A DNA stretch of 59,594 nucleotides, filler included, from Platydemus manokwari (lineage: Eukaryota), in assembly GCA_037951405.1 (NCBI GenBank). It is 5 parts of 5 records of this genome, joined end to end, with 100 filler letters (N's around TTAATTAATTAA, not from the genome) between each part and the next. Parts side by side here need not be neighbours in the genome. Positions count along the whole stretch, not along the records: positions 13,456 to 22,927 come from JBBMOY011243985.1; 4 more parts are not named here. One strand, given 5' to 3'. Each line of letters begins with the position of its first letter. Position 1 is the first letter of the stretch. Of the stretch, positions 20,162-20,263 are shown in pieces. The notes under the pieces are model-generated. The model was given only the letters and a program-made list of their open reading frames with translations, did no database searches and was not told the DNA's origin. A program made the translations under genes and the position numbers.

Positions 20162-20263
20162 AGTAGTAATATAGACCAGTATTTAGAGCTTCGTTTTGAA
20201 CGTCGTTCACTAATACTTTAAAGGTTCGAGGTGTGCCTCTAAATACTGGTCTATAATACTACT
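20162..20263. repeat. 27-bp inverted repeat (1 mismatch) with 48-nt loop; putative Polinton terminus
   Basis: AGTAGTAATATAGACCAGTATTTAGAG (20162-20188) versus CTCTAAATACTGGTCTATAATACTACT (20237-20263). Confidence 0.93.

Follow-up and report, generated by a model that had tools for sequence, protein, structure and literature searches.

The tandem repeats at the ends of Polintons serve slide-back in protein priming, and the flip/flop hairpin ends of parvoviruses (AAV) and poxviruses need a nicking or resolving enzyme. Maverick termini carry the motif 5'-(AGT)2//(ACT)2-3', the commonest Maverick end motif, with (AG)3//(CT)3 as the alternative (Barreat and Katzourakis 2021, PMC8097293), and Polinton TIRs of 100-1500 bp with TSDs of 5-8 bp have been described (bioRxiv 10.1101/2023.08.22.554363). 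In four subtypes of virophages and one of PLVs, every complete member is described as having palindromes at its tips (10.64898/2026.07.28.741278). In Halocafeteria seosinensis these palindromes are tied to non-pPolB replication genes, and the same preprint proposes hairpin priming, with accidental annealing as an alternative. A hairpin at a Polinton-like end is thus already a known idea, and this preprint is the only direct precedent that we found in the accessible literature. Its screen took in palindromes from 20 bp upwards whose gap did not exceed 10 nt, so that a foldback with a 48-nt loop, as described below, would be missed.

Terminal sequences can also be rebuilt: truncated Cafeteria EMALEs regenerate their TIRs (PMC8547959). 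Bidnaviruses took their pPolB and TIRs from Polintons and have ITRs without hairpins (PMC4061559). In Streptomyces, the 'Rabbit Ears' form of the telomere was found not to be involved in telomere restoration (PMC5449611). A wider survey of terminal hairpins is called for in the preprint (10.64898/2026.07.28.741278). In the accessible sections of the Polinton-end literature, including PMC11296320, PMC12220804, PMC6431247 and PMC5753468, no inner inverted (AGT)2 arm is reported.

Sequence data

The window is the whole stretch of DNA analysed, 59,594 nt from Platydemus manokwari (GCA_037951405.1), in which positions 13,456-22,927 are the contig that carries the foldback, JBBMOY011243985.1. The host sequence is that of an AT-rich eukaryote. 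The four N spacers of the window (13356-13455, 22928-23027, 34095-34194 and 48178-48277) are identical, with 100 letters and a 12-letter core, and the order of contigs across them may not be meaningful. Elsewhere in the window we observed a reverse transcriptase fragment (34912-35490, PF00078) and a Mos1-type transposase remnant (50199-50672, PF17906, below the cut-off).

Geometry and fold of the terminal foldback

The foldback is a 102-mer (20162-20263) whose arms, 20162-20188 and 20237-20263, pair at 26 of 27 positions; the sole mismatch lies at arm position 8 (20169/20256), and pairing ends sharply at both edges of the 102-mer. Its parts are as follows.

20162-20188, plus strand: inner arm, 27 nt, starting with (AGT)2 and pointing away from the element body (inverted-repeat scan; end motif as in the accessible part of PMC8097293).
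20189-20236, strand not applicable: loop, 48 nt, as a whole not self-complementary (repeat scan, fold, shuffles).
20197-20209, minus strand: small hairpin TGAAC-GTC-GTTCA within the loop, one mismatch from GAACGAAGTTC, in inverted polarity (motif scan).
20237-20263, plus strand: outer arm, 27 nt, ending in (ACT)2, element-host junction (repeat scan, contig of run X1 with 0 differences, flank homology).

The first-pass annotation of this DNA had described 27-bp arms with one mismatch, a 48-nt loop and (AGT)2 at the arm ends, and our inverted-repeat scan (arms with at most one mismatch, loop up to 300) recovers exactly this arrangement. The foldback is the longest local inverted repeat in the window, the next longest measuring 20 nt, and the maximum in Markov shuffles of the window was at most 20 nt in 30 of 30 cases. 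Folded as DNA, the 102-mer reaches -23.0 kcal/mol (z -6.7, with 0 of 200 shuffles equally stable), and its centroid structure has base pairs in the arms only. The loop shows no self-complementarity of its own (358 of 500 shuffles did as well or better), so that the folded-back part is limited to 27 bp; the earlier description of a self-complementary terminus holds for the arms and not for the loop as a whole. At up to 3 mismatches, the two arms are the only copies of the arm sequence in the window. Rfam gave nothing over the foldback, and only two sub-threshold miRNA matches, at 19241-19342. A resemblance between the loop and 19316-19333 (16 of 18 letters) was set aside as weak, with 7 of 200 shuffles as good and four tests made.

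The element body and its genes

To the left of the foldback lies the body of the element, which is open at an assembly gap; the features that we could assign are given below.

13456-20161, minus strand: element body, open at the assembly gap 13356-13455, with 12 copies of GAACGAAGTTC at up to one mismatch.
19645-20055, minus strand: terminal ORF, C2H2 zinc finger, 136 aa (PF12171, E 6e-06).
18162-18508, minus strand: broken gene of 69-nt repeats, resembling phrog_3532.
17403-18068, minus strand: A32-type packaging ATPase (PF04665, E 1.7e-06).
16032-16493, minus strand: broken penton-like gene, a 30% tblastn match to the one that follows the ATPase in L009, a metagenome relative; the name is taken from gene order, and Pfam gave no match that names the gene.
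15552-15845, minus strand: protease-like gene (tblastn 39% to L009 5025-5465), without a naming Pfam match.
15113-15445, minus strand: fibre-like repeat gene (phrog_2710, E 2e-05).

The zinc-finger ORF starts at 20055 on the minus strand, at the distance of 107 nt from the foldback (20162) that had been annotated. No homologue of this ORF was found, and a guess by eye that it is the start of a pPolB was not confirmed by the homologue and Pfam scans. The PF04665 match scores 28.2 bits against a cut-off of 22.8, as expected for the A32-type ATPase of Polintons/Mavericks, and 88 of 198 candidates lie at E<=0.001, the best at 74%. Compared with 18 homologues, the ATPase of the window is truncated at its C-terminus and has a short insertion. 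We note that this in-frame insertion, of about 11 residues at 17730-17770, is absent in most of the 18 homologues and overlaps the motif copy at 17744; motifs of the GAACGAAGTTC type may be able to insert into genes.

The gene order of L009 is ATPase, penton-like, double jelly-roll MCP (PF21738) and protease-like, and the window matches the ATPase, penton-like and protease-like genes of this series; the protease name is one that we presume from the motifs of the 15552-15845 gene. The penton-like and protease-like genes are candidates for the minor capsid protein and the adenain-type protease of Polintons/Mavericks. The PF21738 protein of L009 had no tblastn match in the window at E<=0.05, the MCP being absent from the syntenic place, and an MCP could sit beyond the gap at 13356-13455. 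Pfam scans of 13 ORFs, and of all three minus-strand frames across 13456-20160 with stops ignored, gave no match to pPolB or to a retroviral-like integrase. As neither was found in the contig, the name Polinton rests on the morphogenesis genes and the end motif. ACTACT stands at 20258-20263, directly at the host junction, as in Mavericks, at the single end that is visible. The earlier assignment to Polintons is in keeping with the end motif, the A32 ATPase and the morphogenesis-type genes. Judged by its genes, the element is best described as a decayed, deleted Polinton-like copy, and it likely belongs to the Polintons proper, given the (AGT)2 end motif that is commonest in Mavericks.

At up to one mismatch, GAACGAAGTTC is found 14 times in the window, against 0.69 expected, and 13 of these copies lie within the element. 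The small hairpin of the loop, at 20197-20209, is one of them, as the annotated kinship with the internal motif implied. Of the copies in the body, 11 of 12 are on the plus strand, whereas the loop copy has the minus orientation, which shows the loop to be turned round against the body. This polarity fits a derived inversion and also flip/flop, and does not fit an unrelated MITE. Between 13865 and 18151 the GAACGAAGTTC copies form mini-hairpins with a GAA loop, mostly 13-72 nt before an ATG on the coding strand, and are candidates for a promoter or for a signal that acts in single-stranded form. Mini-hairpins that share the GAA loop but differ in their stems were also seen in the related loci L003, L006, L007, L011 and L014.

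The junction with host DNA

Three features bear on the borders of the foldback.

20156-20161, plus strand: TTTTGT, hexamer before the inner arm, not a TSD.
20264-20269, plus strand: CACAGT, first host hexamer, predicted half of the TSD, its partner expected beyond the gap.
20274-21050, plus strand: decayed gene of the host flank, interrupted by the outer arm (P0089 matches the window in tblastn at E 8e-19).

The match to P0089 begins at residue 38 of that protein, at position 20274, which is 11 nt past the arm, and none of it lies inside the repeat. Since the homology starts just past the arm, the simplest reading is that the insertion cut a host gene. The outer arm is the true element-host junction: the Maverick (AGT)2//(ACT)2 motif stands at the junction and the host gene is cut there, in agreement with the earlier placement of the element end. 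The relatives of the flank gene are two unnamed proteins only, among 1.84 billion representatives, and Pfam has no match for P0089 or P0090 and hence no family name for this gene. A retrotransposon RNase H, which the right flank had suggested by eye, was rejected, with no match in Pfam or PHROG and no relatives beyond those two proteins. A search for the missing N-terminus of the flank gene gave no match adjoining the element; the best, at 30741, is weak. The region 20274-22200 is purine-rich and holds one or more decayed genes, with an exonuclease-like motif seen by eye only. A tiny hairpin spans the junction at 20259-20271, where 5 letters at the end of the outer arm pair across CAC with 5 from the flank; it is probably due to chance and possibly reflects a target preference.

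The hexamers that flank the 102-mer, TTTTGT and CACAGT, have 2 of 6 letters in common, and no symmetric pair of borders yields a TSD, so that the flanks are indeed not a TSD, as had been stated. Among 289 border pairs, we found only matches of 4-5 letters at shifted, asymmetric borders; one of these, the 5-mer AGTAG on both sides, was rejected as a TSD, being asymmetric, at shifted borders and expected among that many pairs. The last two letters of TTTTGT continue the AGT register, a possible, weak microhomology. AGTAGT preceded by CACAGT is absent from the window, the other end of the element lying beyond the gap.

Other copies of the terminal segment

Contigs of one public run (X1), which contains the stretch (0.57 of sampled words) and is possibly the window's own sample, were aligned to 18762-21761, and the results below refer to 15 of 22 joints, 6 of 254 loose ends and 8 of 1627 pieces. 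Filters and contig building drop records, so that a hole in coverage proves nothing, and the aligner may lose an arm that fits two places.

Contigs identical to the window (0 differences) cover 20161-20582 at a depth of 7.7 and 20559-21673 at a depth of 14.3, contig depth not being a copy number. As these contigs span the 102-mer and the outer junction, neither is an assembly error. The body is highly repeated in X1: by bins, contig depth, again to be read as distinct from copy number, ranges from 64 to 63,581 there and from 7.7 to 163 in the flank, while the bin of the 102-mer has 79.7 and the sequence beside it 420. A segment of the body, 19262-19861, has depths of 9,000-63,000, against 400-2,400 nearer the element end, and may be part of a very abundant non-autonomous derivative or satellite.

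Three joints among the 15 of 22 touch the foldback. Two of them, 19968 to 20201 (side of 40, depth 18.7) and 20025 to 20201 (side of 38, depth 16.8), each connect the body with 20201 on the opposite strand. A side of 40 from 20201 reaches exactly 20162, so that we read these joints, with the geometry that this implies, as an ordinary outward-facing end.

20162-20201, minus strand: 40-nt segment made of the inner arm and 13 nt of the loop, apparently outward-facing in other copies (joints of X1).

From these joints we infer that 20162-20201 is the family's normal terminus. The opposite-strand match goes no further than loop position 13 and leaves out the second half of the small hairpin, and no inner-arm joint for the two opposite-strand contigs was present among the 15 of 22 joints listed, which included rows of lower depth and 20-letter sides. 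Sister copies thus seem to end in a plain form without the inner arm; family members with ordinary TIRs and no inner arm would speak against the reading of the first-pass annotation, and the two contigs among the joints listed do so in part. The two opposite-strand joints are nevertheless not decisive, because the same rows also fit flip/flop with a diverged loop.

The third joint, 20107 to 20161, is on the same strand (depth 9.5, side of 21, 53 unmatched letters) and leads from a non-identical body to the inner arm; it represents either a second copy with an inner arm or a variant of the same locus. As it has the orientation of the window, the foldback arrangement may exist in more than one copy.

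This third joint also bears on the reading that two copies were fused in assembly at the point where body and inner arm meet, which is the least probable of those that we considered. In line with a chimera, the identical X1 contig starts exactly at 20161, 0 of 6 body pieces listed are identical to the window (23-36 differences), and at 19540, 19542, 19550, 19763 and 19767 the window's letter has a depth of zero in X1; against it, the 102-mer and outer junction are identical in X1, which also has a joint from body to inner arm.

An unrelated host MITE that came to lie by chance at the edge of the element is likewise highly improbable. The genome is repeat-rich, and short TIRs round a short non-coding core are present here, with 27-nt arms and a total of 102 nt, so that arm length and size are MITE-like; yet the Maverick motif stands at the ends, the loop holds the element's own motif, there is no TSD, and the reading is largely refuted by the joints through which other contigs connect the same 38-40 nt to the element body. 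Many near-identical dispersed copies were not seen, with one copy in the window and low depth and an unbroken contig in X1. A contig that runs unbroken over the 102-mer suggests that no other locus has a long identical stretch, given the way in which contigs are generally built, and this speaks against a young, high-copy MITE. The view of copy number that X1 offers is through contigs only and is compatible with a low-copy family; the earlier argument that no free-standing high-copy MITE is involved is upheld by the lack of a TSD, the low depth and the unbroken contig.

The orientations of the joints raise a further possibility, that of a conserved functional hairpin end in which the 3'-terminal 27 nt pair with the inner arm on a displaced or excised single strand and the loop undergoes flip/flop; such an end would act either as a hairpin that primes itself or as a local duplex origin at which a terminal protein primes. 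Like the functional second origin suggested in the first-pass annotation, it is hypothetical, and we regard it as somewhat doubtful. Both orientations of the first 38-40 nt do occur beside the body (the window and the joint 20107 to 20161 in one, the two opposite-strand joints in the other), and the arms have stayed identical at 26 of 27 positions though the copy is otherwise decayed. On the other hand, the rows listed for the two opposite-strand contigs hold no inner-arm piece and the match stops at loop position 13, so that a functional hairpin would need the inner arms of both contigs to have been missed; the small loop hairpin, moreover, lacks a GNA loop on both strands.

Related loci

From an alignment of the ATPase we obtained 31 metagenome loci, 4 viral loci and 1 genome locus; in IMG/VR no relative was found with the ATPase alone or the MCP of L009 as query. 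In L001-L035, most of which are too short to reach the element end, the arm is absent at up to 6 mismatches and the terminal region has no DNA match. A 16-nt pattern of the arm that occurs in 32 IMG/VR stretches was discarded as chance, only 0-6 of the next 11 letters agreeing.

Inverted repeats of at least 22 nt are rare in these loci, with 1 in 16 close loci (34 kb; L003), 1 in 20 distant and 0 in 32 unrelated ones. A 33-nt repeat in L033 was rejected as a parallel; it has no AG/CT ends and belongs to a distant virus. In L003, whose ATPase has 49% identity to that of the window, a 101-nt inverted repeat at 2635-2735 has 26-nt arms and a 49-nt loop, a geometry strikingly like that of the foldback, and within the loop lies a variant of the motif that L003 itself repeats (13 of 2000 shuffles). 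This resemblance counts towards a functional hairpin end, as do the terminal palindromes next to TSDs, with their hairpin-priming model, in virophages and the Halocafeteria PLV subtype (10.64898/2026.07.28.741278) and the Streptomyces telomere, a protein-primed system that folds its terminal 13 nt onto an inner copy (PMC5449611). Against this, AG/CT ends are missing from the L003 repeat, which would suit a host MITE that entered a palindromic target, and the palindromes of the preprint accompany non-pPolB replication genes in its accessible sections, whereas (AGT)2 ends are the Maverick motif. Elsewhere in L003, at ~2930-3000, we saw by eye a tRNA-like stretch. A further locus, L068 (CBDDTI010000407.1), is filed in a bacterial MAG and has related ATPase and fibre-like repeat genes; it is probably a eukaryotic Polinton-like contaminant.

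In its widest form, the hairpin idea would make the foldback a family-wide stem-loop telomere, with (AGT)2 ends, the terminal 27 nt folded on an inner copy, a 48-nt motif-bearing loop and two orientations. We consider this unlikely; if it were true, L003 might be a second, diverged example, which we offer as a lead only. Slide-back protein priming and hairpin-type end replication would then be joined in one element, and such ends would be overlooked by palindrome screens with short gap limits. Were the foldback family-wide and flipping, it would be a sequence footprint of the mode of replication.

Origin of the foldback

We tentatively favour the explanation that template switching, in one copy or a small sub-lineage, inverted a normal terminal segment and capped it anew. 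A copying accident at the tip is more likely than a new kind of replication origin, and the fossil copy-back-like event that the first-pass annotation had put forward among other possibilities is now the leading reading, with the loop motif inverted and two X1 contigs in which the first 38-40 nt face outward. We suggest that a polymerase copying towards the end of the linear genome left its template at ~20161 and restarted on the 3' tip of the other strand, aided by the AGT repeat register; up to ~75 nt of the terminus would have been copied backwards, before a second switch back and completion of the last 27 nt. The product would be an inverted terminal segment plus a regenerated 27-nt end still usable by the integrase, so that no TSD would be expected round the 102-mer, and the foldback would be a by-product that can form on a single strand. 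This scheme presumes that the switches took place, that they preceded integration, that loop positions 41-75 also stem from the terminus and that a 2-letter microhomology was used.

The outer junction and the orientation are shown by the sequences, and the origin of the first 40 nt by the joints of X1, given the geometry read from them. The explanation is favoured by the opposite-strand joints, the inverted loop motif, a loop without self-complementarity, the lack of a TSD, the cut host gene and the decayed, deleted state of the copy. Against it stand the joint from 20107 to 20161, which is in the window's orientation, so that there is possibly more than one copy; the two contigs per orientation, which are also expected from flip/flop; a microhomology of two letters only; and related elements with conserved terminal palindromes, together with the 26-nt/49-nt inverted repeat of L003 round its own motif. 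If the rearrangement is a one-off, it is a small fossil that shows how these elements, after template switching, need only 27 nt to rebuild an integrable end, a useful but ordinary finding.

The inverted polarity of the motif would be explained equally well by a mini-Polinton, arisen by internal deletion and made of ~75 nt of one TIR and 27 nt of the other, or by the stump of a nested second member, a later deletion between directly repeated outer ends having removed the second TSD and the old subterminal sequence. The 102-mer does have the full end motif on either side, as a non-autonomous derivative would, its first 40 nt correspond to a normal terminus, and the birth of MITEs by internal deletion is known (PMC3814204). 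We nonetheless think this improbable: two or three events are needed, there is no TSD, and there is no sign of many near-identical free copies (contig depth 79.7, which is not a copy number; one unbroken contig).

Comparison with known systems

As in parvoviruses and poxviruses, the foldback is terminal and its unpaired part could take two orientations; unlike in these, no nicking or resolving enzyme was found in the visible element. In X1 the first 38-40 nt stand both ways round next to the body, which may or may not reflect flip/flop between two arms. A MITE formed by internal deletion (PMC3814204) is likewise a short element with both parental ends, and differs from the present case, in which no TSD and no high copy number are seen. 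In the 'Rabbit Ears' of the Streptomyces telomere, which belongs to a replicon primed by a terminal protein, the end pairs with a second copy of its bases under 100 nt further in (PMC5449611); that system is bacterial, with a 13-bp duplex, several GNA-loop palindromes and end patching, and there is no homology.

The Halocafeteria PLV subtype 4 and virophages share with this locus a self-complementary tip of an integrated, capsid-type element that adjoins the host junction (10.64898/2026.07.28.741278). Their palindromes (52 nt in virophage subtype 5) are interrupted by no more than 10 nt and are found in all complete members of a subtype. Here, in contrast, the arm is 27 nt and the loop 48 nt, outside the palindrome definition of at least 20 bp with a gap of at most 10 nt; the loop is long and non-palindromic, (AGT)2 is present on both arms, the visible part of the element yielded no replication gene, and sister copies possibly are without the inner arm, with two contigs lacking it and one having it among the joints listed.

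Mavericks have the same 6-bp motif at the host junction, as well as the A32 ATPase and other morphogenesis-type genes. In the present element a single end has two inverted copies of the motif, 102 nt apart, and the accessible part of PMC8097293 describes no such inner arm. Lastly, the EMALEs provide a case in which the end of a mavirus-like integrated element is rebuilt after rearrangement (PMC8547959); there the normal TIR is restored, whereas here an inverted terminal segment seems to have been left inside the new end.
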